A DNA stretch of 64,000 bases from a virus (IMGVR_UViG_3300045988_152178); one strand, 5' to 3'; shown: positions 1-14,974, counted from the stretch's first letter. Notes: generated by a model not told the origin, from the sequence alone. Numbers and translations are program-made.

Positions 1-120
1 GGAGCACCACCCCACCAGGAGGAGCACCACCCCACTAGGAGGAGCACCACCCCACTAGGAGGAGCACCACCCCACCAGGAGGAGCACCACCCCACTAGGA
101 GGAGCACCACCCCACCAGCC
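1..120. repeat. Six tandem copies of a 20-bp unit GGAGCACCACCCCACYAGGA, running off the left window edge
   Basis: Read directly. Units start at 1,21,41,61,81,101 and differ at one C/T position; the last unit ends in GCC. Frame 1 stays open to TAA at 157-159, so this could be the 3' end of an upstream CDS. A 20-bp period is not a multiple of 3. Confidence 0.9.
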
Positions 121-299
121 ACCAGGATGCAGCACCACCCAACAGTTTTTTATATATAATAAGGTATTTAAAATATCAAGTAACAACAAAAAAAAATAGG
201 GAACAAATAAGTTTATTTGCAAATATATGTATATTTAAGGCGTTTATTTGTGATTAAAGGTTAAAAATAAAGGAAAACATAAACTTTTTGCGGGAAATA

Positions 300-331
300 T
301 TTGCACGGAACAAATAAATATATTACCTTTG
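300..331 (+). promoter_or_regulatory. Bacteroidota-type promoter (TTTG -33, TAnnTTTG -7)
   Basis: TTTG at 300-303 and TACCTTTG at 324-331 with 20-nt spacing. No ORF for about 350 nt downstream. Confidence 0.5.
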
Positions 332-679
332 CAAGCGTAAAACAAAAGGTAATAGTTTTACGATTGATCTTTGACATATTTATATTTTGTGTGTAACTGC
401 AGGCAGTTACTCAAAATCACAAATGAAATGAAAAATATATAATAAGTTGTAAATACTTATTATTAGATATATAAGGATTTTCGCCGTTAACCTTAAGGAA
501 ACGGCGGGTAACAGCAACGGGCTATTATAAAGAAATGTAGCGAGCTGATAGGTAGTATATCGTATTGATACATTACACTATAAGACGGTGAAAACATTTA
601 GCTTTTGTAAAGGGGGCGGATCCCTTTATAGCCTCAAAATTAAAACAAGAAAGTATTAAACATTTAAAATTTAAAAGTT

Positions 680-1057
680 ATGAAAAAGGATTTAGTTATT
701 TCAACCATCGCAGCAATCGCCGCGCAAAATCCAGAAGGTTACACCGTTAACGCTGCAACTTTGCAGCCTATAACTTCTGGTTACGCTGTAGGCTTGTTAG
801 TTACTCAAGACTCGTTTGGCGCTGAAGGTCTCGTAAAGGTAGTTAATGTAATTGAAAAAATGCAGAATCAGGGAGAAGCCTCTCATTTTGATGGCCTCGC
901 TTTTGGCGGCTGGTATAACTCAAAAAATGGTCGTTATTATTACGATGCAACCGTAATTGTGAAGGATCGTGCAAAAGCCCTGGAACTTGCACGAGTTAAC
1001 AGACAGTTGGCTATTTATGATTTAGATAATTTAGAACAAATTAGACTCGACGATTAA
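680..1057 (+). CDS. hypothetical early protein (125 aa)
   Basis: Clean ORF with an A/T-rich leader (aaaatttaaaagttATG), followed by a GC hairpin. No motif recognised. Confidence 0.7.
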   Translation: MKKDLVISTIAAIAAQNPEGYTVNAATLQPITSGYAVGLLVTQDSFGAEGLVKVVNVIEKMQNQGEASHFDGLAFGGWYNSKNGRYYYDATVIVKDRAKALELARVNRQLAIYDLDNLEQIRLDD

Positions 1058-1067
1058 ATAAATCCAT

Positions 1068-1087
1068 GGGAGCCGGTTCCGGCTCCC
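1068..1087 (+). terminator. GC-rich hairpin after the gene (GGGAGCCGG TT CCGGCTCCC)
   Basis: Perfect 9-bp inverted repeat 11 nt after the stop codon, followed by TTATTA. Confidence 0.6.
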
Positions 1088-1099
1088 TTATTATCCCTT

Positions 1100-1129
1100 T
1101 ATTATAGAACATTTTAAAATTTAGAAATT
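1100..1129 (+). promoter_or_regulatory. Conserved early-gene leader motif, copy 1 (TATTATAGAACATTTTAAAATTTAGAAATT-ATG)
   Basis: TATTATAGAAC at 1100-1110, 30 nt before the ATG at 1130. The same motif and spacing occur before four other genes. Confidence 0.65.
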
Positions 1130-1567
1130 ATGGCAACAAAAATTTATAATAGAACAAATTTCGATTTTATAGTTAACGGCGAAAAGATTTCTTTTTTCTG
1201 CAATACTACAAATACAAAAAATGGTTTTTGTCATCATGTTTACGTTATAGGTGGTGGCAAAGATTATGAGCACACCCGCGTATCATATTATAATCGCACT
1301 TGGGAGTCCTTCGAGTATGAGACGGCTCTATATCACGCTATAGATAAGTTTCCCAAGAACTTACGTGAACCTTTGCGCCTCGAAGTGGAGGCGTTGGCCC
1401 TTGATGAACACAAGAAGGCGGAACGCTTTATAAAAGCATTCGCGGCTAATTTCGCAGCATTAAGCGACGAACAAAAGAAATTTGTGCGTGATCACACACC
1501 AGAAATCACAAACAAGAACCAGGCAAAAACCGTTAGCGCGTCCGTTGCCATGATGGCGGCACTATAA
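1130..1567 (+). CDS. hypothetical early protein (145 aa)
   Basis: ORF preceded by the conserved leader and followed by a hairpin. Confidence 0.75.
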   Translation: MATKIYNRTNFDFIVNGEKISFFCNTTNTKNGFCHHVYVIGGGKDYEHTRVSYYNRTWESFEYETALYHAIDKFPKNLREPLRLEVEALALDEHKKAERFIKAFAANFAALSDEQKKFVRDHTPEITNKNQAKTVSASVAMMAAL

Positions 1568-1606
1568 TATATAAGATTCCCGGGTGCAAAGGTAACCAGC
1601 CCAAAA

Positions 1607-1625
1607 CGGCGGATCATTCCCGCCG
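1607..1625 (+). terminator. hairpin CGGCGG-7nt-CCGCCG
   Basis: 6-bp GC stem between the stop at 1567 and the next leader motif. Confidence 0.4.
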
Positions 1626-1633
1626 GTACCCCC

Positions 1634-1664
1634 TATTATAGAACATTTTAAACTTTAAGGAATT
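1634..1664 (+). promoter_or_regulatory. Conserved early-gene leader motif, copy 2
   Basis: TATTATAGAACATTTTAAACTTTAAGGAATT, then the ATG at 1665 (31-nt spacing). Confidence 0.65.
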
Positions 1665-2495
1665 ATGGAAGCAAAGATAGATTTTAAGAATTTAGCAAAA
1701 GAGAATATCGTAATGATAGCAGCCCGCCTAGGCGATCTGAATGAAGACTTTGGCGACGTGTTCGCATGGATAAGCGATTCCGTTTCCGTCACGAAGCCGG
1801 AACGCTTCAGCAGCGAGGAAAACGCAAAGGAATACGGAATCCTGAAAAATGAGTTTTACATGCGCCGTGGTATGATTGATCGTAACAAGCCTATAAACTA
1901 CATTATAGGCACGGAAAAAGATTACCAGAACGCCGTAAAAACTTGTCTTCGCCGTAAAAAGAATGAGGAGGTAAAGAAGTACCGCGAACACGTCGAAAAA
2001 CTCGTTGACCGCTCCAACAAAGAAATTTTGGCGCTGAAGGCGCTAAAATCTGTGTGCCGCACCTTCGATGGTAAGGTGATAAATAAGCGATTCACGGAGT
2101 CTGTAGGCGCTGCTACGGGTTGTCATTGTTACTTTGATGATGATAGTCTGAACCTTGTAAAAAATAGCTGTGCTGGTCCTTATAAGGAAATCCATGTGCG
2201 CCTTTATTATAGATGGTACAAGAAATTTGAGAATTTCTGGCAGTGGAAGCCGCGCGACCGCATGGAGGCGGAAAAGGCAGTGTCTATTATAGATATAGAG
2301 ATAAGCGAGCTGCAGCATGAAATTAAGAGACTCCATGGCACCCGGAAGAATTACGCAAAGTACGTGGCGAAGGTGCGCAAAGTGGAAAAGCTCATCGAGG
2401 AACTCATCCGCGAAGATGTGTATATTCGAGGCTTCGCGATGGATCACGACCTGCAGCAGTATCCTCTAGTTACCGGTATTTGGAAGTGTAGTTAA
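1665..2495 (+). CDS. hypothetical protein (276 aa), Lys/Glu-rich and partly coiled-coil-like
   Basis: Long ORF bracketed by the leader motif and a hairpin. Confidence 0.75.
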   Translation: MEAKIDFKNLAKENIVMIAARLGDLNEDFGDVFAWISDSVSVTKPERFSSEENAKEYGILKNEFYMRRGMIDRNKPINYIIGTEKDYQNAVKTCLRRKKNEEVKKYREHVEKLVDRSNKEILALKALKSVCRTFDGKVINKRFTESVGAATGCHCYFDDDSLNLVKNSCAGPYKEIHVRLYYRWYKKFENFWQWKPRDRMEAEKAVSIIDIEISELQHEIKRLHGTRKNYAKYVAKVRKVEKLIEELIREDVYIRGFAMDHDLQQYPLVTGIWKCS

Positions 2496-2504
2496 AATAT
2501 TATA

Positions 2505-2532
2505 GGTGGCCCTGGGCATCATCCAGGGCACC
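2505..2532 (+). terminator. hairpin GGTG(G)CCCTGG-7nt-CCAGGGCACC
   Basis: 10-bp stem with one bulge. It directly abuts the TATTATAGAAC at 2533. Confidence 0.55.
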
Positions 2533-2558
2533 TATTATAGAACGTGTGAATTTTCACC

Positions 2559-2589
2559 TATTATAGAACGTTTTAAATTTTATAGATTT
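2559..2589 (+). promoter_or_regulatory. Conserved early-gene leader motif, copy 3 (a second, tandem TATTATAGAAC lies at 2533-2543)
   Basis: TATTATAGAACGTTTTAAATTTTATAGATTT, then the ATG at 2590 (31-nt spacing). Confidence 0.65.
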
Positions 2590-3297
2590 ATGTTTAATGC
2601 AAAGTTATATGTAGATGTTTTGACCAAGCAGGTAAAGGAAGACGGCCGACCTTATGAGATGGCGTTGAATGATTTTTGCGATTACCTTCTGGATTTATTC
2701 AGTGTGGAGGCGTTCAAGAATGATTTCAAGGGTCTTCTGAAATGGCAGCAGGAACGCTTTCAGGCAAAACCGCATTTCTGCTTTTTGGCTTTGGCCTGGA
2801 TGGATGATGTAACCAAGGCTATGGAGCAGGGAAAATGGCTTGATATTTTCGGCATGCTGTATGAGGAAATGTATTTGATAGCTGGTAAGGCTTCCAGAAC
2901 GGGGCAGTTTTTCACGCCTCCGGCTGTTTCGGATTTGATGAGTGAACTTGTAGGCACGAAGAAAAAAGAAGCCTCCAGCGTGAAAAAAGACGGGCTAAAA
3001 GTGAATGATTGTGCTGCTGGCAGCGGTCGCCTCCTTCTATCTCATTTTATCGAGGTTAGCAAGCAGAATCATTCAGCCGGTCGCCCTTATAGCTATATTG
3101 CACAAGATTCAGATCCGCTGGCCTGTAAGATGTGCGCCCTGAACATGATGATTCATGGAATGAACGGACGGGTAATCTGCCAAGATACCCTTACTTTGAG
3201 CACTCCAACGGTGGAGTATATCGTTAACGAAGTAAGATACCCGTTTATCACGCCTTATTATAGCGTGCGTGTAAAATCAGGGAATCCTCAAAAATAG
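2590..3297 (+). CDS. N6-DNA-methylase-like protein lacking the catalytic NPPF/Y motif (235 aa from the ATG at 2590; the track ORF starts at a GTG at 2506 inside the hairpin)
   Basis: TGQFFTPPAVSDLM (motif X), NDCAAGSGRLLL (SAM-binding motif I) and CALNMMIHG are as in HsdM / type IIG methylases. The ORF ends about 40 aa later with no (N/D)PP(F/Y). Confidence 0.7.
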   Translation: MFNAKLYVDVLTKQVKEDGRPYEMALNDFCDYLLDLFSVEAFKNDFKGLLKWQQERFQAKPHFCFLALAWMDDVTKAMEQGKWLDIFGMLYEEMYLIAGKASRTGQFFTPPAVSDLMSELVGTKKKEASSVKKDGLKVNDCAAGSGRLLLSHFIEVSKQNHSAGRPYSYIAQDSDPLACKMCALNMMIHGMNGRVICQDTLTLSTPTVEYIVNEVRYPFITPYYSVRVKSGNPQK

Positions 3298-3306
3298 GAT
3301 TCCCTG
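3278..3306 (+). terminator. hairpin CAGGGAATCC-9nt-GGATTCCCTG spanning the stop codon
   Basis: Perfect 10-bp stem. The TAG stop (3295-3297) spans the loop/right-arm junction. Confidence 0.55.
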
Positions 3307-3322
3307 GGAATAAAAAGAAACA

Positions 3323-3351
3323 TATTATAGAACATTTAAAATTTTAAGGTT
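3323..3351 (+). promoter_or_regulatory. Conserved early-gene leader motif, copy 4
   Basis: TATTATAGAACATTTAAAATTTTAAGGTT, then the ATG at 3352. Confidence 0.65.
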
Positions 3352-3996
3352 ATGGAAAAGAAAAAGAAATTTACAACGGTGTGCGATGCACGTTTAGCCG
3401 GTTTTGAAGGCTTTTATTGCTCTATTTGGAGCCCAGACGATGATATTTACTATTATGGTCTTGAGAATGGATTTGAGGAGGATAAGGATTTCTCTTTTGA
3501 TTATAAGGGATATTACAAGGCCATTTGCGAGGAGTACACCGAGGTTTGGGAAGGATGGATGCAGCAGTATATACACGAGGATATTAAACTGAATTTTCTT
3601 CAGGTATGGCAGCCACGCTTTTATAATTACGAGAATGATGCTTGCGTGGTTCGCATCAAACTTACTCACCAGGCTAAGAAGGCGATTATAGAGAAGGCGA
3701 AAAATCACCGTGATAAAATAGCCGGATGGATCAAGGAGAATTGCACCAGCTCAAGTGGTTTTATCTCCTTCCTGAGTAATGACATCGACGACTGGGGCGG
3801 CTGGGTACTTTTCGATACGGAGGCTTTTCACCAGGCAAATTATCTGGCATACATGCTCTATTATATTGTGAAGGCAGAATTGGAGGCAGATGGATATACC
3901 GATGAGCGCCCGGAGATTTACGCCTATGATGAGGTTAGTGACCAGGTGAGCACATTAAGTTATATCGACGATATAGACAAGGGCAAGGCAGCCTAA
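3352..3996 (+). CDS. hypothetical acidic protein (214 aa)
   Basis: Long ORF after the leader motif. Rich in D/E/Y/W. No family recognised. Confidence 0.75.
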   Translation: MEKKKKFTTVCDARLAGFEGFYCSIWSPDDDIYYYGLENGFEEDKDFSFDYKGYYKAICEEYTEVWEGWMQQYIHEDIKLNFLQVWQPRFYNYENDACVVRIKLTHQAKKAIIEKAKNHRDKIAGWIKENCTSSSGFISFLSNDIDDWGGWVLFDTEAFHQANYLAYMLYYIVKAELEADGYTDERPEIYAYDEVSDQVSTLSYIDDIDKGKAA

Positions 3997-4059
3997 GCGT
4001 TGCCCTATTATAGCCCATCGGAAAAATTAGTAATCACTCATTATAGAACATATAGAAAA

Positions 4060-4416
4060 ATGAAGAAATCATCAGTTATATATAATTTCGCTATCTCGCA
4101 GCAGCAGGAAAAATTTCTGCTGACTGCCCAGGAATACCCATGGAGTGTGCTCCAGGTAGTGACTTTCGAGCTACAATATTTCGACAAGGTTGTGGAGCTT
4201 TGTAAGCGCCGTGGTATGGTAGCCACCCACGACAAGGACCGCTCCTTCTGCATCATCCATCTTGGCAGTGGAGACCTGGGCGGCAAATATCCCGATAAGC
4301 ATATCAATACTGATACGCCAGCAGCTATCGACAAGTATTTGGAAGCCTTGCAGGATGCGATGGCTCAGGCAGCGGTATGGTATTATACGAATATTATAGA
4401 ACGTGTAAAAAATTAG
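4060..4416 (+). CDS. hypothetical protein (118 aa from the ATG at 4060; the track start at 4000 is a TTG inside the hairpin)
   Basis: ATTATAGAAC at 4040-4049 precedes the ATG at 4060. The upstream part of the track ORF covers the hairpin at 3981-4005 and the motif. Confidence 0.65.
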   Translation: MKKSSVIYNFAISQQQEKFLLTAQEYPWSVLQVVTFELQYFDKVVELCKRRGMVATHDKDRSFCIIHLGSGDLGGKYPDKHINTDTPAAIDKYLEALQDAMAQAAVWYYTNIIERVKN

Positions 4417-4421
4417 AAGTT
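4392..4421 (+). promoter_or_regulatory. Conserved early-gene leader motif, copy 5 (inside the 3' end of the previous CDS)
   Basis: TATTATAGAACGTGTAAAAAATTAGAAGTT, then the ATG at 4422 (30-nt spacing). Confidence 0.6.
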
Positions 4422-4682
4422 ATGGCAGAATATATGTTAGATATATATAAGATACGCAGATTTGCAAATGGGCATGTGACATCGGAGAAAGTCTCGAAAG
4501 TACTTAAAGAAAGTACGGTAAAACATGCGAAACGAGTTAACAAAAACGTTGGTTATAAGTATGTCGGACGCTATAAAGATATGTACGGCAACTATTATAC
4601 CAAGTATGAACGCAAGGACGAAAAGTTATCCGATTCCGAATGTGAAGTTTATTATAAGCAAATATTCACAAAATTAAAGTAA
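4422..4682 (+). CDS. hypothetical basic protein (86 aa)
   Basis: The ATG at 4422 sits at the canonical distance from the leader motif. Confidence 0.65.
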   Translation: MAEYMLDIYKIRRFANGHVTSEKVSKVLKESTVKHAKRVNKNVGYKYVGRYKDMYGNYYTKYERKDEKLSDSECEVYYKQIFTKLK

Positions 4683-4711
4683 ATATAGACTCAATTAAAA
4701 AATTAGAATTT

Positions 4712-5272
4712 ATGGAAGCAAAGAATAATAATAAGAACGGTATGAACGTTATAGAGAATGTAGAGAATGAAGTGCAGGTGACAGAAGAGAGCCGAAAGGC
4801 ATACGGCAGACCATCCGTTAACGAGGAGAAGGGATGGAAGCTGGATCACGTCATCCCTTTTGACTTCTACCACAACGCATATATCAAGAGCCACAAGGGT
4901 ATCGATGAGCTTGTGCGGATGGTATCGCAGGAGTGCCATATCAGCCCTGACGATACCAGTTCCTGGGCAAAGGACATCCGTACGATGATCAAGTATGCCA
5001 TCGAGCATTTCGACGAGCAGTTGGAGGATGACGAGGCGACTCCAGACGAGGAGAATGAACTCTTATCAGGGTGCTGGATAGGCGATGGTATCGAATTGCA
5101 ACATGAGGCCTTCTGGGTTGCTGACGGCTACGTTCCTCATACCTTCGAGGAGTTTAAGGCGGAACATATACGTGAGGGCTACTGGGAAAACATGCTTAAA
5201 GTGAAAGGTATGACGGAGGAAGAATATAAGGCATACTATAATGAGTGCTATGCGCAAGATAATGCGGCATAG
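4712..5272 (+). CDS. hypothetical acidic protein (186 aa)
   Basis: ORF with leader aaaaaattagaatttATGG. Followed by the hairpin GGGGAAGGC/GCCTTCCCC around 5320-5342. Confidence 0.75.
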   Translation: MEAKNNNKNGMNVIENVENEVQVTEESRKAYGRPSVNEEKGWKLDHVIPFDFYHNAYIKSHKGIDELVRMVSQECHISPDDTSSWAKDIRTMIKYAIEHFDEQLEDDEATPDEENELLSGCWIGDGIELQHEAFWVADGYVPHTFEEFKAEHIREGYWENMLKVKGMTEEEYKAYYNECYAQDNAA

Positions 5273-5645
5273 GATAAGATATACCGGGGTTATCCATAAT
5301 GCCCCACCATCCCATACAGGGGAAGCCTGAAAGCCTTCCCCTACCCCGTCCGGCAGACCGGCAGCGTGGAGCGACACCATGGCGGGGTGCATTATTCTTT
5401 TGAGAATAACTTTGAAATTTTAAATGTTTGTTAGCGGAAGCGTCCGCATTTGATTTACACGCTGCTTGTGGTCCGTGAGGATAGCAGCAGCATTTTTTCC
5501 CTCGCTGCCACGGCTGGCACCATCTATTGAAGATGTGAGGATCGACATCTCAAAGCGAACAATGACTGAAAAATAAGGTATAGAGTACTGAAAACGTGAT
5601 AAAACGTTAAAAATACATCTAAAATAGTATTTTATGTGTATTTTA

Positions 5646-5677
5646 TTTGGTGGTTTCAGAAATTATCCGTACCTTTG
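5646..5677 (+). promoter_or_regulatory. Bacteroidota-type promoter
   Basis: TTTG at 5646-5649 and TACCTTTG at 5670-5677 with 20-nt spacing, upstream of the gene at 5769. Confidence 0.55.
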
Positions 5678-5768
5678 CATCAGATAAAATAAGAAGATAA
5701 TATATAATACTAATAATAATCGGCTGTGCCAGATAGCCAAATAAGTCTCAAGGGCATGAGCAGAGAAT

Positions 5769-6689
5769 ATGATTATCACTTTCAAGGAGTTTAAGGACAA
5801 AGTTCATGAAGACGCTGACGTATGCTTTGGTTCGTTCAGATTTGACGAGGCCGACGAGCGCAAGGGTCGCGAGGTTTCTATCCATCGTTTTGGTAAGAGT
5901 GTGCAGTACCAATTTTGCGCTGCTTCCTGCATCTTTGATCTTCCGCTTGCAGATAGCTATAAGATGGATGTTTATACGGAGCATAAGTATTATGGTTATG
6001 GAAGTTATTACGGAACTTACTACGTAAAAGAGGGTACTCCTGTAGATTTCAATGTTAATAGGTTCTTTATCATCGCTCCTGACTTCCTCGCTGACATCGA
6101 GAAGGCTTACAAGCGCAAGAATGATTATAAGCACTGCTGCATCAATAACTACGTGATTTCTTCCGTTTCCGTGGCTTGTGCTACGTGGATGCGTCTTACT
6201 GACTACCTGAAAGGTAAGAATGAGGTGGAGCTTCTGGCTGGTTCTATCCGTATCGGCGCGTGCGAGAAGGATGAGATCAAGCGTGCAGCCAAGGTCCACA
6301 AGTATATCGTTCTTGCTGAGAAGGCTTTCAAGAAGTATTTGGAAGAGAAAGTTCTTGCTAACGAAGACGAATATCTGAGTATGCTTGCACGTAAGGCAGC
6401 AGAGAAGAAGGAGGAAGAGAAGGCAGCAAAGAAGGCTGTGAAGGCAAGAGCCAAGGAACAGGCTTATATCAAGGAGCATATCTGCGTATTTGATAAGGCT
6501 GGCGAAAAGGTAGATTTCAGTGCATCTCATCTCATCTGCCTCTGTCTGTATCTGGGCAAAATTACGGAGGTTTCGATGCAAAAATCGCCGAGGAAAACGG
6601 CGTGGAGTGCTACGAGTGGAAAGATTATGACGGATATAGCAAAAGATGCAATTTTACCATGGTGCGCCGTTCCTTCACCCTGTATCTGA
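5769..6689 (+). CDS. hypothetical protein, 5' portion of a gene apparently split by a frameshift
   Basis: The first 250 aa or so are protein-like. The tail after 6537 (LICLCLYLGKITEV...) looks non-coding, while the overlapping frame looks genuine. Confidence 0.6.
   Translation: MIITFKEFKDKVHEDADVCFGSFRFDEADERKGREVSIHRFGKSVQYQFCAASCIFDLPLADSYKMDVYTEHKYYGYGSYYGTYYVKEGTPVDFNVNRFFIIAPDFLADIEKAYKRKNDYKHCCINNYVISSVSVACATWMRLTDYLKGKNEVELLAGSIRIGACEKDEIKRAAKVHKYIVLAEKAFKKYLEEKVLANEDEYLSMLARKAAEKKEEEKAAKKAVKARAKEQAYIKEHICVFDKAGEKVDFSASHLICLCLYLGKITEVSMQKSPRKTAWSATSGKIMTDIAKDAILPWCAVPSPCI
6523..6537 (+). repeat. (CATCT)3 pentanucleotide tandem repeat at the frame-switch point
   Basis: Read directly: catct catct catct. 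With two copies, the 5769 frame would run into the 6602-7159 frame. Confidence 0.9.
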
Positions 6690-7159
6690 AGAAGGGATAT
6701 TATATCTATATCGTAGGCGGTCTGATTACCTTCGTGCGTGGCGAAATCAAGCGCCAGGGCGTGGCTTGCGAGTGGATTGAGCAGGGCAAGGCTATCGCTG
6801 ATATTAAGACCGTGAAGGGCTTCCTGGTAAGGGGTGAGCACATCGTAGCCAAATCTTTGAAGGAGGCGCAGCGTATCAGCGCCGAGAAGCGAAACAAGCA
6901 GGCTCTTAGTCTGCTGAATGCCAGAAGCAAGGATCAGCTCGTTTACCAGAAGGTAGGAAATCACATGTTTACCTTTGAGGAGTCTTTGGCTTCCGGCAAC
7001 TGCCGTCCTGGTACTCAGAACTTCAAAAACCGCTACGAAGCTGCCATCGGTCACGAGGCTACCGAGATTTCGCTTGCCGATCTTCGTAAGTATGGCAAGA
7101 AGTTCGGTCTTGAAGAATATACCGAGCGTGTTATCCGCTACGTTATGAACAAATTGTAG
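6602..7159 (+). CDS. hypothetical protein, 3' portion of the split gene (its frame is open from 6497)
   Basis: No ATG start. The frame upstream of 6602 reads PLSVSGQNYGGFDAKIAEENG, continuous with the ORF. Confidence 0.6.
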   Translation: MECYEWKDYDGYSKRCNFTMVRRSFTLYLKKGYYIYIVGGLITFVRGEIKRQGVACEWIEQGKAIADIKTVKGFLVRGEHIVAKSLKEAQRISAEKRNKQALSLLNARSKDQLVYQKVGNHMFTFEESLASGNCRPGTQNFKNRYEAAIGHEATEISLADLRKYGKKFGLEEYTERVIRYVMNKL

Positions 7160-7419: not shown

Positions 7420-7977
7420 ATGGCAAAAAGAGAAATTCCCCTGTTTATTATAGACACGCTGCGAAATCACAAGCGTGGTGAGTGCGACTTCATCGTCTGC
7501 ACTGATAAGGATTGCGGTTTCATCGCAAAGGTAGATTACATCGACGAGGAAAAGGAGGAGGTAGGCGATGATTACCGCATCGGTTTTCCTCGCCGTGGGT
7601 GTAGCCTGAGAATCAAGATTCATCAGATGATAGGGCAGCATCCTGATACGGGCAGGATAAGAACTTTGCTGAAGAAGGGTATGGAGTACTTCCTGAAGGC
7701 TGTTACCTGCGAGATTCACGTGAACAATCCGAGCCGTGAGGAGTGTGCTGACTTCCTGAATACGCTGGTCCGCATGAATAAGCAATATGTGGATGATGCC
7801 GGCTCTGATTATCACGCAAGACAGGCCACCATCCACTCCATTATGATGCTGGAGGCTACGAGAAAACTCCTTCTGGAAAAGCCGGAAGGTATCGAGATTG
7901 AGAACGGCGGCGATAATGATCCGCTCAAAGATGTAGATTTTCATAAAAATCATTTAGCCCTACCGCATCACGGTTAA
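7420..7977 (+). CDS. hypothetical protein (185 aa)
   Basis: Long ORF tightly packed after the previous gene. Confidence 0.7.
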   Translation: MAKREIPLFIIDTLRNHKRGECDFIVCTDKDCGFIAKVDYIDEEKEEVGDDYRIGFPRRGCSLRIKIHQMIGQHPDTGRIRTLLKKGMEYFLKAVTCEIHVNNPSREECADFLNTLVRMNKQYVDDAGSDYHARQATIHSIMMLEATRKLLLEKPEGIEIENGGDNDPLKDVDFHKNHLALPHHG

Positions 7978-7988
7978 GCGGAATAATT

Positions 7989-8372
7989 ATGTCGGAGATT
8001 ATTTGTAACAATACGACAACGTTTCTTGCAAGACGATTGTTTGATAATGGTGAATCTTTGGTGTGCAAGTGTGATACATACGGTGATACGTACAAGAGAG
8101 TTGGAACGATTGAAGGTTTAATAACTACACTGACGATCACTGGAAGAGATAAGAATATATACTCTTTCCGTATCATAGACGAGCAACGTCAACCTTATAA
8201 AGATCTGACTAGGATAATATGCAATAGATTGGCGGGCGAGCCGAAAGACAGTGCAAGCTCAATCGGTCAGATATTCCTGGATAAGCAAGGTTATTGGGTT
8301 ATGTTTGAGGACTGTAGCTATCCTGACAACCACACGACGTTGGAGTTTCATAAAATTGGCGTTTACGCATAA
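7989..8372 (+). CDS. hypothetical protein (127 aa)
   Basis: ORF preceded by the 27-nt repeat at 7956-7982 and followed by two GC hairpins (8383-8425). Confidence 0.65.
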   Translation: MSEIICNNTTTFLARRLFDNGESLVCKCDTYGDTYKRVGTIEGLITTLTITGRDKNIYSFRIIDEQRQPYKDLTRIICNRLAGEPKDSASSIGQIFLDKQGYWVMFEDCSYPDNHTTLEFHKIGVYA

Positions 8373-8681
8373 AACGAAAAAGCCCCGACCTAAGCCGGGG
8401 CACCGCGAGCCTTCTGGCTCGAATCTACGATAGTAGAAATTTGGCTCTATAAGAGCGTTTAAATCCGCAGACTTTGAAGAGTCTGACCGTCAACGGAAGT
8501 TATATTGCTCTTTCCATTCCATAAAGGTTCGATTAAATCAATATCCATAAAGGTACGATTAAAGCCTTCCGAAGACGGTGCAAATTTAAGAAATAAAATA
8601 ATACGTTGTATCATTTCACCCGAATTATTAATATTAATTAAGAATTTTCAGCCCTACCGCATCACGGCGAAGCGGATTTTT

Positions 8682-10360: not shown

Positions 10361-10480
10361 TTACGACAAGGCAACGAAAGCATAAAAGCATAAATACATA
10401 AAAACATAAATACACAAAAGCACAAAAGCACGCATAAACGCACGTTTGTGCGTTTATGTATTTATGTGTTTATATATTTA

Positions 10481-10640
10481 TTGATTTATTTCTTTCTTCA
10501 TTGGTTTATTTATTTCTTTCTTCATTGGTTTATTTATTCCTTCGTTGGTTGGTTTGTTTCTTCATTGGTTTATTTATTCCTTCGTTGGTTGGTTTGTTTC
10601 TTCATTTATTTCTTTCTTCATTAGTTTCTTTGTTCATTCA
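10481..10640. repeat. T-rich degenerate direct repeats, including an exact 40-bp tandem duplication (10521-10560 = 10561-10600); candidate centromere (parS)
   Basis: Read directly: TTCATTGGTTTATTTATTCCTTCGTTGGTTGGTTTGTTTC occurs twice, flanked by related TTTCTTTCTTCATTGGTTTATTTAT units. Lies 280-430 bp upstream of parA. Confidence 0.8.
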
Positions 10641-10826
10641 TTGGTTTATTTCTTGATTGATTTATTAGTATATTTGTTTCAATACATCAATCCATACATA
10701 AAAGCATTAAAAATATTAAAAACATTTGGTGGTTTAAAATTAAAACCTTAACTTTGCAGCATTAAAACACAAAAGCATAAAAGCACAAATGTGCATTTAT
10801 GCGTGGATGCGTTAGTGGTTTTATTG

Positions 10827-10854
10827 AAAGAAAGAAACATAGCTTTCTTTCTTT
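10827..10854. promoter_or_regulatory. palindrome AAAGAAAGAAA-6nt-TTTCTTTCTTT upstream of parA (candidate operator)
   Basis: Perfect 11-bp arms, 63 nt upstream of the parA ATG. Confidence 0.45.
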
Positions 10855-10916
10855 GAACAAAGAAATGAATACATTAATAAATATATATATATAAACGAAT
10901 TAATACTTTTAAGATT

Positions 10917-11789
10917 ATGGCAGAAACAAGATTAAAAGAAATCCTCGCCTTCGTAAATCACAAGGGGGGAGTTGGTAAGACAACAACCGTACAGAGTTTG
11001 GCAACTGGTCTTCGCCGTTATGGTAAAGGTTACTTTGGTAGGGGTGAAGATGGCAAGGAGCGCAAACCTCGTATCTTGCTTATTGATTTGGACCCTCAGT
11101 CAAGTCTCTCCTTCCTCTTCGGATGGAGTGAGGCAGAGAATATCGGAAAGCCTACTGTATACGATGCGATGATACAGCAGTCTCCCTTGACCGTCTATCA
11201 GGTAAGAGAGGGCATCTATCTTGCTCCAGCATCTTACCGGCTTATCAATATCGAACCTTTCCTTAATCAGATGCCGGTACCACGCAAGGCTTTGTATAAG
11301 TTATTCGGCAAGCCGCTGACGGAAGTACGAGGCGACGAATTGGCTACAGAAGGAGTTTTATCTATCCTGGAGGCTTTCGATTATGTTCTGTTAGACTGCC
11401 CACCAGCGCTATCTCTGCTTACGCATAACGCCCTGTCGGTGGCAACGGGTGTGGTAATACCTATCCAGCTCGAAATGCTGGCAACGAAAGGTATTGCCGA
11501 AATTCTGAATGCGGTGCAGGAAACCCGTGAAGACTTGAATCCTGATATTGATATTCGAGGCTTGTTTATGGTGATGAGTAATGATCAGACGAGAGCCACT
11601 AAGCAGTTTAAGGAGTATCTGGGCAATAAGTTTGATGATTACATGTTCGATTCGTACACCCGTCGAGATACGAAGATGGTAGAGGCGCAGGCTATCAATC
11701 AGGATATATTCTCTTATTCGCCTTACAGCAGAGTAGGGCAGGACTACGAGAATTTTACGAAGGAAATTTTGGCTAGTATGCCGGAATAA
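10917..11789 (+). CDS. parA: ParA/Soj-family partition ATPase
   Basis: Deviant Walker A FVNHKGGVGKTTTV at the N-terminus and the Walker B-like YVLLDCPP. Length (290 aa) and context fit. Confidence 0.9.
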   Translation: MAETRLKEILAFVNHKGGVGKTTTVQSLATGLRRYGKGYFGRGEDGKERKPRILLIDLDPQSSLSFLFGWSEAENIGKPTVYDAMIQQSPLTVYQVREGIYLAPASYRLINIEPFLNQMPVPRKALYKLFGKPLTEVRGDELATEGVLSILEAFDYVLLDCPPALSLLTHNALSVATGVVIPIQLEMLATKGIAEILNAVQETREDLNPDIDIRGLFMVMSNDQTRATKQFKEYLGNKFDDYMFDSYTRRDTKMVEAQAINQDIFSYSPYSRVGQDYENFTKEILASMPE

Positions 11790-11818
11790 TGATGTTTAAT
11801 TTTTAGTGATTTACGATT

Positions 11819-12232
11819 ATGGCAAGACAAGCAAAAAGTAGCATACATAAGTTTGAAGGTTTGGAAGATTCGCCAGCCATCAAAGGTATAGAAAAGATTT
11901 ATGAGGCAAATGAGGAAGCTCGCCAGAAGCGCGCTGCCGAGGCATTGGAGAAACAGCAGAACGGGCAGGGTACCGCAGAGTCGGAACCTGCACCCCAGGC
12001 TGAAGCACCTTCGCAGTCTCCGGTTCCTCCTGCATCAGCCGCTCCTATTTCTGCTCCCGACCCTGCACCTATGAGAAAGGCTGGCAAGAAGACGCAGAAC
12101 GGTATCACCATCTATGTGCCGATGGATTACTACATGCAGATATTGCAGATGAAGATGGAGACGGGTACGCCTATCAAGGACATCGCTCTGCAGGCAGTCA
12201 TCGAGTATCTGGATAGACATAAGAACGGATAA
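11819..12232 (+). CDS. ParG-like centromere-binding protein (ribbon-helix-helix C-terminus)
   Basis: Pro/Ala-rich disordered middle, then ITIYVPMDYYMQILQMKMETGTPIKDIALQAVIEYLDRH, which fits a strand-helix-helix pattern. Lies directly downstream of parA. Confidence 0.6.
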   Translation: MARQAKSSIHKFEGLEDSPAIKGIEKIYEANEEARQKRAAEALEKQQNGQGTAESEPAPQAEAPSQSPVPPASAAPISAPDPAPMRKAGKKTQNGITIYVPMDYYMQILQMKMETGTPIKDIALQAVIEYLDRHKNG

Positions 12233-12236
12233 TGCA

Positions 12237-12320
12237 GGTAAACGAAAAGTCAGATTTGAAGGTAAACTGAAAAGTGGTTTTGAACCTATTTACCTTTCTG
12301 AATCTGACTTTTCGTTTACC
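12237..12320. repeat. Iteron cluster A: one exact and one degenerate direct copy plus one inverted copy of GGTAAACGAAAAGTCAGATT
   Basis: 12237-12257 direct, 12261-12281 degenerate, 12301-12320 exact reverse complement. Confidence 0.85.
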
Positions 12321-12419
12321 TAAAAACGAAGTCTTTAAATAGAAAATTATAAGATTATAGATATTATATATATTAGTAAAATCTTAATAGTTTAGTTTTC
12401 AGATACTTATAAAGCTACT

Positions 12420-12551
12420 GGTAAATGAAAAGTCAGATTTTGGTAAATGAAAAGTCAGATTTAGGTAAACGAAAAGTCAGATTTAGGTAAACGAAAAGTC
12501 AGATTTAGGTAAACGAAAAGTCAGATTTAGGTAAACGAAAAGTCAGATTTG
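12420..12551 (+). repeat. Six contiguous 22-bp iterons GGTAAAYGAAAAGTCAGATTTN ending 2 nt before the rep ATG (replication origin / rep operator)
   Basis: Units start at 12420, 12442, 12464, 12486, 12508 and 12530. Preceded by an A/T-rich stretch (12322-12419). Confidence 0.9.
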
Positions 12552-14949: not shown

Positions 14950-14974
14950 CCGTTCCCAGCGATTCCATCGCTGG
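14950..14974 (+). repeat. Conserved hairpin element, copy A (CCGTTCCCAGCGATTCCATCGCTGG)
   Basis: 8-bp stem CCAGCGAT/ATCGCTGG with loop TCC. Starts 3 nt after the stop. Confidence 0.9.

Follow-up and report, generated by a model that had tools for sequence, protein, structure and literature searches.

A hairpin, box and leader unit repeated at the junctions of a single-gene cassette array in a family of uncultured, probably Bacteroidota-infecting phages

The stretch of 64,000 nucleotides from the gut virus IMGVR_UViG_3300045988_152178 that was analyzed here (the window) carries near its beginning an array of eight small genes, at whose junctions recurs a unit consisting of a GC-rich hairpin of variable sequence, the short conserved motif TATTATAGAAC, which includes the octamer TATTATAG, and a leader that runs to the start codon. 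These junctions most likely provide each small gene with insulated transcription and translation signals and double as recombination joints. Stated more specifically, each junction would be a composite regulatory cassette, in which the hairpin is followed by a box that is read by the host polymerase, probably with the help of a phage factor, and then by the leader; the probability of this reading is put at about 0.5.

Motif copies and their conservation

The array of single-gene cassettes described in an earlier note on this DNA is present, with its motif, hairpin and leader anatomy. Exact copies of TATTATAGAAC are found in the window at 1100, 1634, 2533, 2559, 3323 and 4392, and a copy with one mismatch, CATTATAGAAC, at 4039. 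Nine matches with at most one mismatch occur in 64 kb versus 1.46 expected, a number reached by none of 100 shuffled sequences. The octamer TATTATAG occurs 14 times, 12 of them within 1100-4400, and a profile hidden Markov model (HMM) built from 81 distinct family instances of the motif scores seven sites of the window as significant, each of them on the + strand and within 1095-4422. Before five ATGs the motif is joined to an AU-rich leader of about 20 nt, and the distance from motif start to ATG (30, 31, 31, 29 and 30 nt for the copies at 1100, 1634, 2559, 3323 and 4392) agrees with the spacing of 29-31 nt reported earlier; the copy at 4039 starts 21 nt before its ATG, and the tandem copy at 2533 starts 57 nt away. 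The partial or extra copies listed in the earlier note are likewise found at 2533, 4006 (degenerate, TATTATAGCCC) and 4683 (degenerate, ATATAGACTC), and the one placed at 4040 begins at 4039.

Scanning viral contigs with the motif recovered multi-copy loci, all of them homologous to the array region at 65-99% nucleotide identity, and the array is present in more than 65 related uncultured phage contigs of approximately 100-105 kb. The earlier note had named absence of the motif from homologous regions as a finding that would speak against its proposal; the motif is in fact strongly conserved in many related phages. For the comparative analysis, 80 loci (1.1 Mb) were taken from 278 relatives found by a protein-guided scan with the HsdM-like gene of the array (gene 4), and in these the core with at most one mismatch occurs 467 times on the gene strand versus 6 times on the other. 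Among distinct junctions of array genes, 64 carry the exact core and 22 a core with one mismatch, compared with 1 and 3 for the other genes of the same loci, and in whole genomes profile matches are confined to the array. No motif array was detected in 185,579 bacterial and archaeal species genomes, where the 98 matches were single and scattered, and the motif was rejected on these grounds as a host promoter or prophage marker. A literature search for the motif string returned nothing relevant.

The 81 family instances share an invariant core, with the G of TATAG located 22-26 nt from the ATG, and in 74 of the 81 a purine directly follows AAC. ATTATA is the least variable part of the core and the final C the most variable. 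Between paralogues, identity over the 18 nt upstream of the core is 0.31, equal to random, and over the 18 nt downstream 0.63, versus 0.36 for shuffled sequences. Orthologues reach 0.85 over the same comparison, and paralogues of the same genome (0.63) are not closer to each other than non-orthologues from different genomes (0.605), so the uniformity of the motif is attributed to selection, and concerted evolution was rejected as its source. The leaders are 86% A+T. Shine-Dalgarno cores precede 11% of genes versus a background of 13%; given this lack of enrichment, the AGG/GAG of the leader was rejected as a Shine-Dalgarno sequence.

Hairpins

Folding supports hairpins at 1068-1087, 1607-1625, 2510-2528 (extended 2502-2535), 3277-3307 and 3980-4006, thus at five of the seven junctions of the window. 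The claim that a hairpin precedes every motif holds for these five and fails for the copy at 4392, upstream of which folding reveals none. Among relatives, 77% of 84 distinct 60-mers upstream of the motif fold at -12 kcal/mol or below, versus 37% of control windows (p = 3e-16). The hairpins mostly end within 5 nt of the box, their 3' ends ranging from -5 to +29 nt from the motif, and their sequences are exchanged between subgroups while the box stays. The stem of hairpin 1 differs in sequence in relatives with pairing kept, and in a distant subgroup an unrelated hairpin occupies the place of hairpin 4. Hairpin 1 is predicted to have the form of a canonical intrinsic terminator; the hairpins other than hairpin 1 are followed by UAUUAUAG or by A-rich sequence.

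Elsewhere in the window a hairpin that is conserved in sequence, in contrast to the variable hairpins of the array, follows gene blocks in five + strand copies (CCGTTCCCAGCGATTCCATCGCTGGTC at 14950, 22561, 30525, 59076 and 62288), and probably serves the middle and late regions as a common terminator.

Host-type promoters and the flanks of the array

The first gene of the array, starting at 680, is preceded by a promoter of Bacteroidota host type rather than by the motif. TTTG-N~20-TAYCTTTG stands before the orthologous first gene in 8 of 8 relatives, the box lying about 47 nt upstream of the ATG. The leader of gene 680 carries AAACATTTAAAATTTAAAAGTT before the ATG, retaining AAC and the AU-rich stretch and lacking TATTATAG. 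Since a gene with a host promoter keeps the AAC/AU leader without TATTATAG, the motif can be read as two fused parts. TAYNTTTGCA boxes are enriched in the window (10 versus 1.7 expected) and precede operons at 324, 5670, 13991, 49476 and 59190; a window scan found none at cassette junctions on the + strand, which upholds the earlier distinction between the motif and the host TAnnTTTG -7 box. An antisense host-type box, TACCTTTGCA, does lie in junction 2 (1585-1594, - strand), directed back into gene 1130; visual comparison with relatives showed a different first base there, so that it may be due to chance.

This genome alone has an insertion (341-634) separating gene 1 from its host promoter; it contains a hairpin, a motif-like CTATTATAAAG, a second hairpin and TATAGCC, folds with a z-score of -3.7, and could represent a cassette in decay or encode a small RNA. 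The non-coding spacer that closes the array (5273-5768) is 70-96% identical in many relatives and is also structured (z-score -2.8). Upstream of the array lies a large non-coding region with a 20-nt tandem repeat, GGAGCACCACCCCACCAGGA, in 5.9 copies (window 1-145), at whose position relatives have other C-rich repeats (L088 4049-4220).

Cassette turnover and a second lineage

Relatives differ in gene content cassette by cassette. Between genes 1130 and 1665, six related loci (L050, L088, L005, L046, L066 and L115) hold four cassettes, about 1.85 kb, that the window lacks, and a three-way alignment places the crossover of this indel inside CTATTATAGAACATTT, within the motif. The slot after gene 4060 is occupied by at least five alternative genes, namely the 4422 gene in the window and f29, f3, f31 or f17 in relatives, and three relatives have an additional gene of 330 aa between 3352 and 4060.

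A second lineage (G2), comprising 12 loci, including L415 and L422, has an HsdM-like gene at 58% identity to that of the window; of the remaining window genes that were compared (680 through 9151) it has none. TATTATAGAAC was found in none of the 12 loci. Every G2 gene nevertheless has a comparable layout, in which a GC hairpin, again variable, is followed by the box (T)AnnAACCA(A/T), then by an A-rich leader and finally by GAATT-ATG. This box is represented by 115 distinct instances, is found 221 times in sense versus once in antisense orientation, lies 19-23 nt from the ATG, and is accompanied by a hairpin in 83%. Host-type TACCTTTGCA boxes occur in G2 loci as well. As the box is lineage-specific while the host-type promoter is common to all, a phage-specified reader of the box is favored. 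The truncated HsdM-like gene has moved between the two lineages. In a third small group CTATTATA is kept and the following bases vary. G2 arrays run to at least 15 single-gene cassettes, one of which encodes a reverse transcriptase (L415:11110-12375). The host promoter of gene 680, the turnover of cassettes and the second lineage with its different box were not part of the earlier note.

Genome, host and search for a reader of the box

Near-identical DNA was not found in cultured phages, the closest terminase large subunit (TerL) and primase matches being approximately 20-30% identical and belonging to Polaribacter, Flavobacterium, Porphyromonas and Microcystis phages. The large terminase of the window is distantly related to Bacteroidota phage terminases. 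The window also encodes a 2309-aa tape measure protein, a DNA-polymerase clamp, and a 1226-aa protein with a weak match to phage DNA primase/TOPRIM and a Walker-A-like GGSGKS, probably a primase-helicase. Together, the enrichment of TAYNTTTGCA boxes and the absence of enrichment of Shine-Dalgarno cores point to a Bacteroidota host. Related contigs of 100-105 kb are assembled in different circular permutations. A crAss-like identity was rejected in view of the 2309-aa tape measure protein and the lack of a giant virion polymerase. Rfam and tRNA scans of the window returned nothing.

To cover the whole genome, a composite was used, made of the window and a remainder from the relatives L120, L289, L334 and L059; proteins of this remainder were recovered from contigs 166820 and 161046. 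No RNA polymerase or sigma family (Pfam, PHROG) was detected among its approximately 115 proteins scanned, 63 of them from the window, nor among the early-region proteins scanned one by one, and DxDxD was absent from open reading frames (ORFs) of at least 250 aa except for one of 433 aa, taken as the capsid protein, although a polymerase without detectable similarity could escape these Pfam, PHROG and DxDxD searches. The tape measure protein is a plain coiled coil without DxDxD, and a fusion of tape measure and polymerase as in phage P23-45 was rejected for that reason. Gene 680 was also considered as a sigma-like factor and rejected: its AF2 model is confident (pLDDT 93.7), has an alpha/beta fold and found no match in the PDB, and all of its 499 homologues lack annotation. 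As neither a polymerase nor a sigma factor was found, the host polymerase is left, by exclusion, as the likely reader of the box.

Proposed function and alternative explanations

The suggestion of the earlier note, that the motif represents a distinct promoter class or else a shared processing or translation leader, is retained as the best reading and refined to a TATTATAG box joined to an AAC/AU-rich leader. The GC-rich stem-loop, free in sequence, would end or insulate the upstream transcription unit. Next to it, (C)TATTATAG would act as a -10/-7-like promoter element with nothing conserved upstream, read by host RNA polymerase, probably together with a phage-specified specificity factor; such a factor is probably needed because the box is not the host sigma-A box and is not common to the other Bacteroidota phage lineage. 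The first base of the transcript would be the conserved purine after AAC, a few bases past the box, and the AAC with its A/U-rich, C-poor leader of about 20 nt, devoid of Shine-Dalgarno sequence, would set translation at a fixed distance. TATTATAG would thus be a DNA-level box, needed where a host promoter is not supplied, and the first gene, under its canonical host promoter, would presumably be made first. Because the unit of 30-40 bp recurs at every joint, it may also serve as recombination homology for inserting, deleting and replacing whole cassettes. It is tempting, if rather speculative, to extend this to both lineages and to regard TATTATAG and (T)AnnAACCA as promoters of an unrecognized lineage-specific transcription-specificity system of Bacteroidota phages that redirects transcription to swappable gene arrays; the reader in such a system could be a phage-made or injected factor, or a polymerase, without similarity to known sigma factors, appropriators or polymerases.

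Several observations weigh against the composite cassette as proposed. That the elements work as promoters and terminators, where transcripts begin, whether a phage factor is required and how early the genes are expressed are all deduced from sequence and position, and no candidate specificity factor for the box was identified, gene 1 not being sigma-like. A proper U-tract follows hairpin 1 alone, the other four of the five window hairpins lacking one, and about 23% of motif copies have no strong hairpin. In about half of the copies CTATnATAG forms a 4+1+4 palindrome, a form compatible with a dimeric DNA-binding protein no less than with a polymerase. Three leaderless TATTATAG boxes (2205, 2285 and 3256) are located within ORFs and have been conserved among relatives, which is not explained by a simple model of one promoter per gene. 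In the box-using lineages, 65 of 66 loci use TATTATAG to encode the tetrapeptide P-Y-Y-S at 3256, whereas none of the 12 loci of the boxless lineage does; 11 of these 12 have TATTACAG instead, a control that represents few independent events. Finally, 49% of homology-block ends (n = 481) fall in junctions, which make up 13% of the sequence, but this enrichment comes in part from the faster divergence of hairpins, the blocks being BLAST blocks. As a separate observation, synonymous positions of the 3256 box are retained in 65 of 66 loci, and the box lies in the loop of a small CACGC/GCGTG stem.

Some of these features would be accommodated if the unit acted at the RNA level. The early region of phage T7 is cut by RNase III into monocistronic mRNAs, and by analogy the array could be transcribed as one polycistronic RNA from the promoter before 680, its hairpins protecting 3' ends or guiding processing and TATTATAGAAC with its leader forming a ribonuclease site and translation module. 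A canonical host promoter is indeed present at the head of the array only, conservation runs from the box downstream to the ATG as in a transcribed element, the first cistron, which needs no processing, has the leader and not the box, and the absence of U-tracts from four of five hairpins fits as well. Against this, hairpin 1 has the form of a canonical terminator, stems of 6-12 bp are too short for RNase III, an invariant sequence of 8-11 nt is unusual for sites of RNase E/Y type, and the tandem copies at 2533 and 2559, 26 nt apart, are better explained by DNA recognition, as are the conserved boxes within ORFs. An RNA-level function is accordingly considered unlikely, though it deserves attention. 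Slightly less probable is a role of the box as an operator or "stoperator" that binds a phage regulator silencing or co-regulating all cassettes, for example in a plasmid-like carrier state. The sites are oriented, near-invariant and in some cases located inside ORFs, and the palindromic form of about half of them has been mentioned; in L059 and L005 a gene lying a few kb upstream and on the other strand specifies a candidate regulator, a Cro/C1-type HTH_26/HTH_3 protein of 221-233 aa, and the window has a ParA-like gene with iteron-like repeats. An operator would not, however, account for the fixed distance to each ATG and the fusion of the site to a leader, nor for the restriction to one array instead of a spread over operons; in addition, neither an integrase nor, in the 185,579 species genomes, a copy of the array was found. 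Operators usually overlap promoters, and the two roles would not exclude each other.

A promoter for an unrecognized RNA polymerase, phage-encoded or injected with the virion as in N4, phiKZ or P23-45, whose pre-early genes are marked by a conserved AT-rich motif, would explain why the motif is short, private, lineage-specific and limited to one block of ORFans beside a large non-coding region, and the tape measure protein is very long (2309 aa), that of P23-45 carrying the virion polymerase (bioRxiv 10.1101/2022.12.01.518664). This is nonetheless improbable given the plain coiled coil of the tape measure protein, without DxDxD, the absence of polymerase families from all proteins scanned, and the host-type promoters found before gene 1 and before the operons of the middle and late regions. 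Least probable is that the unit is mainly a recombination signal, comparable to integron attC or another site-specific cassette system, with expression secondary. Single-gene cassettes in one orientation, hairpins variable in sequence and conserved in structure, and turnover at the joints are what such a signal would produce, but family scans detected no integrase or recombinase, whether close to the array or farther away, the stems are short, perfectly paired and devoid of attC core sites, and what is conserved follows the hairpin, at a set spacing from the ATG.

Comparison with known systems

T4 late promoters (TATAAATA) consist of a -10 element only and are served by the host core polymerase with phage gp55 and gp33. 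They resemble the junctions described here in having a short, AT-rich, -10-like, phage-specific box without a -35 element, and differ in that no gp55-like or sigma-like protein was detected here and the genes are not late structural ones. Stoperators of cluster A mycobacteriophages and the C1 operators of P1 are numerous short oriented sites with a lineage-specific consensus, and the junctions share with them the high copy number and the uniform orientation with respect to transcription; those sites are distributed genome-wide without a leader at a fixed ATG distance, whereas here they occupy one array of 4-5 kb. The N4 hairpin promoters, which have a hairpin of defined sequence and size at a set spacing from the start site, do not match, the hairpins here being unrelated in sequence, placed at -5 to +29 nt from the motif and missing from some copies. 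From integron cassettes, whose attC sites have R''/R' core sequences, the array is set apart by the lack of a detected IntI-type integrase or recombinase and by stems that are short and perfect.

The closest parallel in layout is offered by the promoter-early stem-loops (PeSLs) of T4-type phages (Arbiol et al. 2010, PMC2839356; Comeau et al. 2014, PMC4122927). In both cases a stem-loop, a promoter-like element and a translation signal are combined between an upstream stop and a downstream ATG, the repeats are dense in a plastic region of small ORFans, and endpoints of indels and replacements between related phages fall in the repeated element (PMC2839356, PMC4122927). The T4 promoters, however, are strong host sigma-70 consensus promoters (-35, -10 and AT-rich upstream sequence), and the host-consensus promoter that belongs to the definition of a PeSL is absent from the junctions, where the box is non-consensus and the upstream 18 nt are random. 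Further differences are the AU-rich leader, which replaces the Shine-Dalgarno sequence in a Shine-Dalgarno-less Bacteroidota host, and the stems, which are unrelated in sequence here and GGGG/CCCC-like in T4; the phage itself is an unrelated long-tailed virus of about 105 kb. PeSLs are further characterized by demonstrated promoter and terminator activity and by excised mini-circles.

The Thermus phage P23-45 has AT-rich pre-early promoters and conserved terminators, used with an RNA polymerase fused to the tape measure protein in the virion (bioRxiv 10.1101/2022.12.01.518664). It shares with the array a conserved AT-rich motif that is limited to one gene block, occurs only in related phages with the same system and is paired with terminators, putative ones in the array, and differs in that no polymerase domain was found here in the tape measure protein or elsewhere and the first gene uses a host promoter. 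In phage phi14:2, early promoters have no common motif (bioRxiv 10.1101/2020.03.07.982082). The Bacteroidota sigma-A promoter consists of -33 TTTG and -7 TAnnTTTG (PMC7366714). TATTATAG has T1, A2, T6 and G8 of TAnnTTTG, four of six specified positions, at a comparable distance from the ATG, and the purine 4 nt downstream of it could be a start site. On the other hand, two of the three T's of TTTG are replaced by A, an unrelated hairpin stands upstream in place of the -33 TTTG, which would be expected about 19-21 nt before the box, and other genes of this genome do have the true consensus.

Genes of the array and other features of the window

The array comprises eight + strand genes of 86-276 aa (Table 1), three of them acidic (pI 4.6-5.1). 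This bears out the earlier picture of small, partly acidic proteins among which a truncated methylase homologue is the only one recognizable. That protein, the product of gene 4, aligns to positions 4-121 of 311 of the Pfam N6_Mtase profile and to residues 162-294 of PDB 3lkd, and ends before the catalytic NPPF motif. The accompanying label of a host-takeover or anti-defense locus found no support, since none of 10 extra cassette proteins scanned matched Pfam and the model of gene 1 had no PDB counterpart. The term "early" is inferred from the position of the array alone.

Table 1. Features of the cassette array and its flanks, with window coordinates
Coordinates	Strand	Feature	Basis
300..331	+	Bacteroidota host-type promoter of gene 1: TTTG 300-303, 20-nt spacer, TACCTTTG 324-331	Sequence, TAYNTTTGCA scan
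341..634	+	Insertion of ~287 bp separating host promoter from gene 1, present in this genome only; no ORF	No match in related loci
680..1057	+	Gene 1, 125 aa, pI 5.1	ORF call
1068..1087	+	Hairpin 1, 8-bp GC stem and U-rich tail TTATTATCCCTTTATTAT	Folding; scores as intrinsic terminator
1100..1129	+	Motif copy 1, TATTATAGAAC and leader	Motif scan, profile
1130..1567	+	Gene 2, 145 aa, no family match	ORF call, family scans
1607..1625	+	Hairpin 2, CGGCGG...CCGCCG, nested in longer stem	Folding
1634..1664	+	Motif copy 2	Motif scan; junction of four-cassette indel relative to relatives
1665..2495	+	Gene 3, 276 aa, pI 9.1, core gene of array; two conserved internal CTATTATAGAT boxes (2205, 2285)	
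2502..2535	+	Hairpin 3, 3' arm reaches first motif bases	Folding, z-score -4.5
2533..2543	+	Tandem extra motif copy, truncated leader, abuts hairpin 3	Motif scan; same tandem layout in relatives
2559..2589	+	Motif copy 3	Motif scan, profile
2590..3297	+	Gene 4, 235 aa, AdoMet-binding half of type I HsdM-like N6 methylase; internal TATTATAG at 3256	
3277..3307	+	Hairpin 4, 12-bp stem, overlaps gene 4 stop codon, no U-tract	Folding
3323..3351	+	Motif copy 4	Motif scan, profile
3352..3996	+	Gene 5, 214 aa, pI 4.6	ORF call
3980..4016	+	Hairpin 5, directly followed by degenerate box TATTATAGCCC (4006-4016)	Folding, motif scan
4039..4059	+	Motif copy 5, CATTATAGAAC, short leader, 21 nt to ATG	Motif scan, profile
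4060..4416	+	Gene 6, 118 aa, last codons encode next motif (4392)	ORF call
4392..4421	+	Motif copy 6, inside 3' end of gene 6, without hairpin, followed by variable slot in relatives	Motif scan
4422..4682	+	Gene 7, 86 aa, pI 9.6, occupies variable slot	ORF call, comparison with relatives
4683..4711	+	Degenerate motif ATATAGACTC and leader; relatives have TATTATAATAAC or TATTATAGAATC at same place	Alignment with relatives
4712..5272	+	Gene 8, 186 aa, pI 4.6, last of array	ORF call
5273..5768	+	Conserved 496-nt non-coding spacer closing array, ends with host-type TACCTTTG at 5670-5677	

Beyond the array, the gene at 5769-7159 is split into two reading frames with a junction near 6550-6560 and corresponds to a single ORF of 459-468 aa in relatives; the split could be a frameshift, a pseudogene or a sequencing error. 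A second repeated leader, AGCCCTACCGCATCACGG(T/C)(T/G)AAGCG, lies at 7956-7973 and 8650-8667, just upstream of the ATGs at 7989 and 8682, and is also found before two gene families in relatives. The gene for the ParA-like ATPase (10917-11789) is situated between short tandem-repeat arrays (10377-10790) and six 22-nt repeats (12420-12550), the latter preceding a 430-aa gene, and the region 10377-12550 resembles a plasmid-like partition and replication module. In the late (virion) half of the genome, a relative carries a beta-ketoacyl synthase gene, unusual for a phage, surrounded by unannotated genes and a few kb from the tail-fiber and endolysin genes (L334:3946-5148).

Significance

To our knowledge, how phages of gut Bacteroidota control transcription has hardly been explored except in the crAss-like phages. 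The array supplies a sharply defined, private regulatory box in an abundant family of uncultured phages, together with a natural comparison, since a second lineage combines this layout with a box of its own. Should a phage factor prove necessary for the box, Bacteroides engineering would gain a candidate orthogonal promoter. The resulting map of self-contained, exchangeable cassettes is an obvious place to seek genes of host takeover and anti-defense, the truncated HsdM-like protein included.

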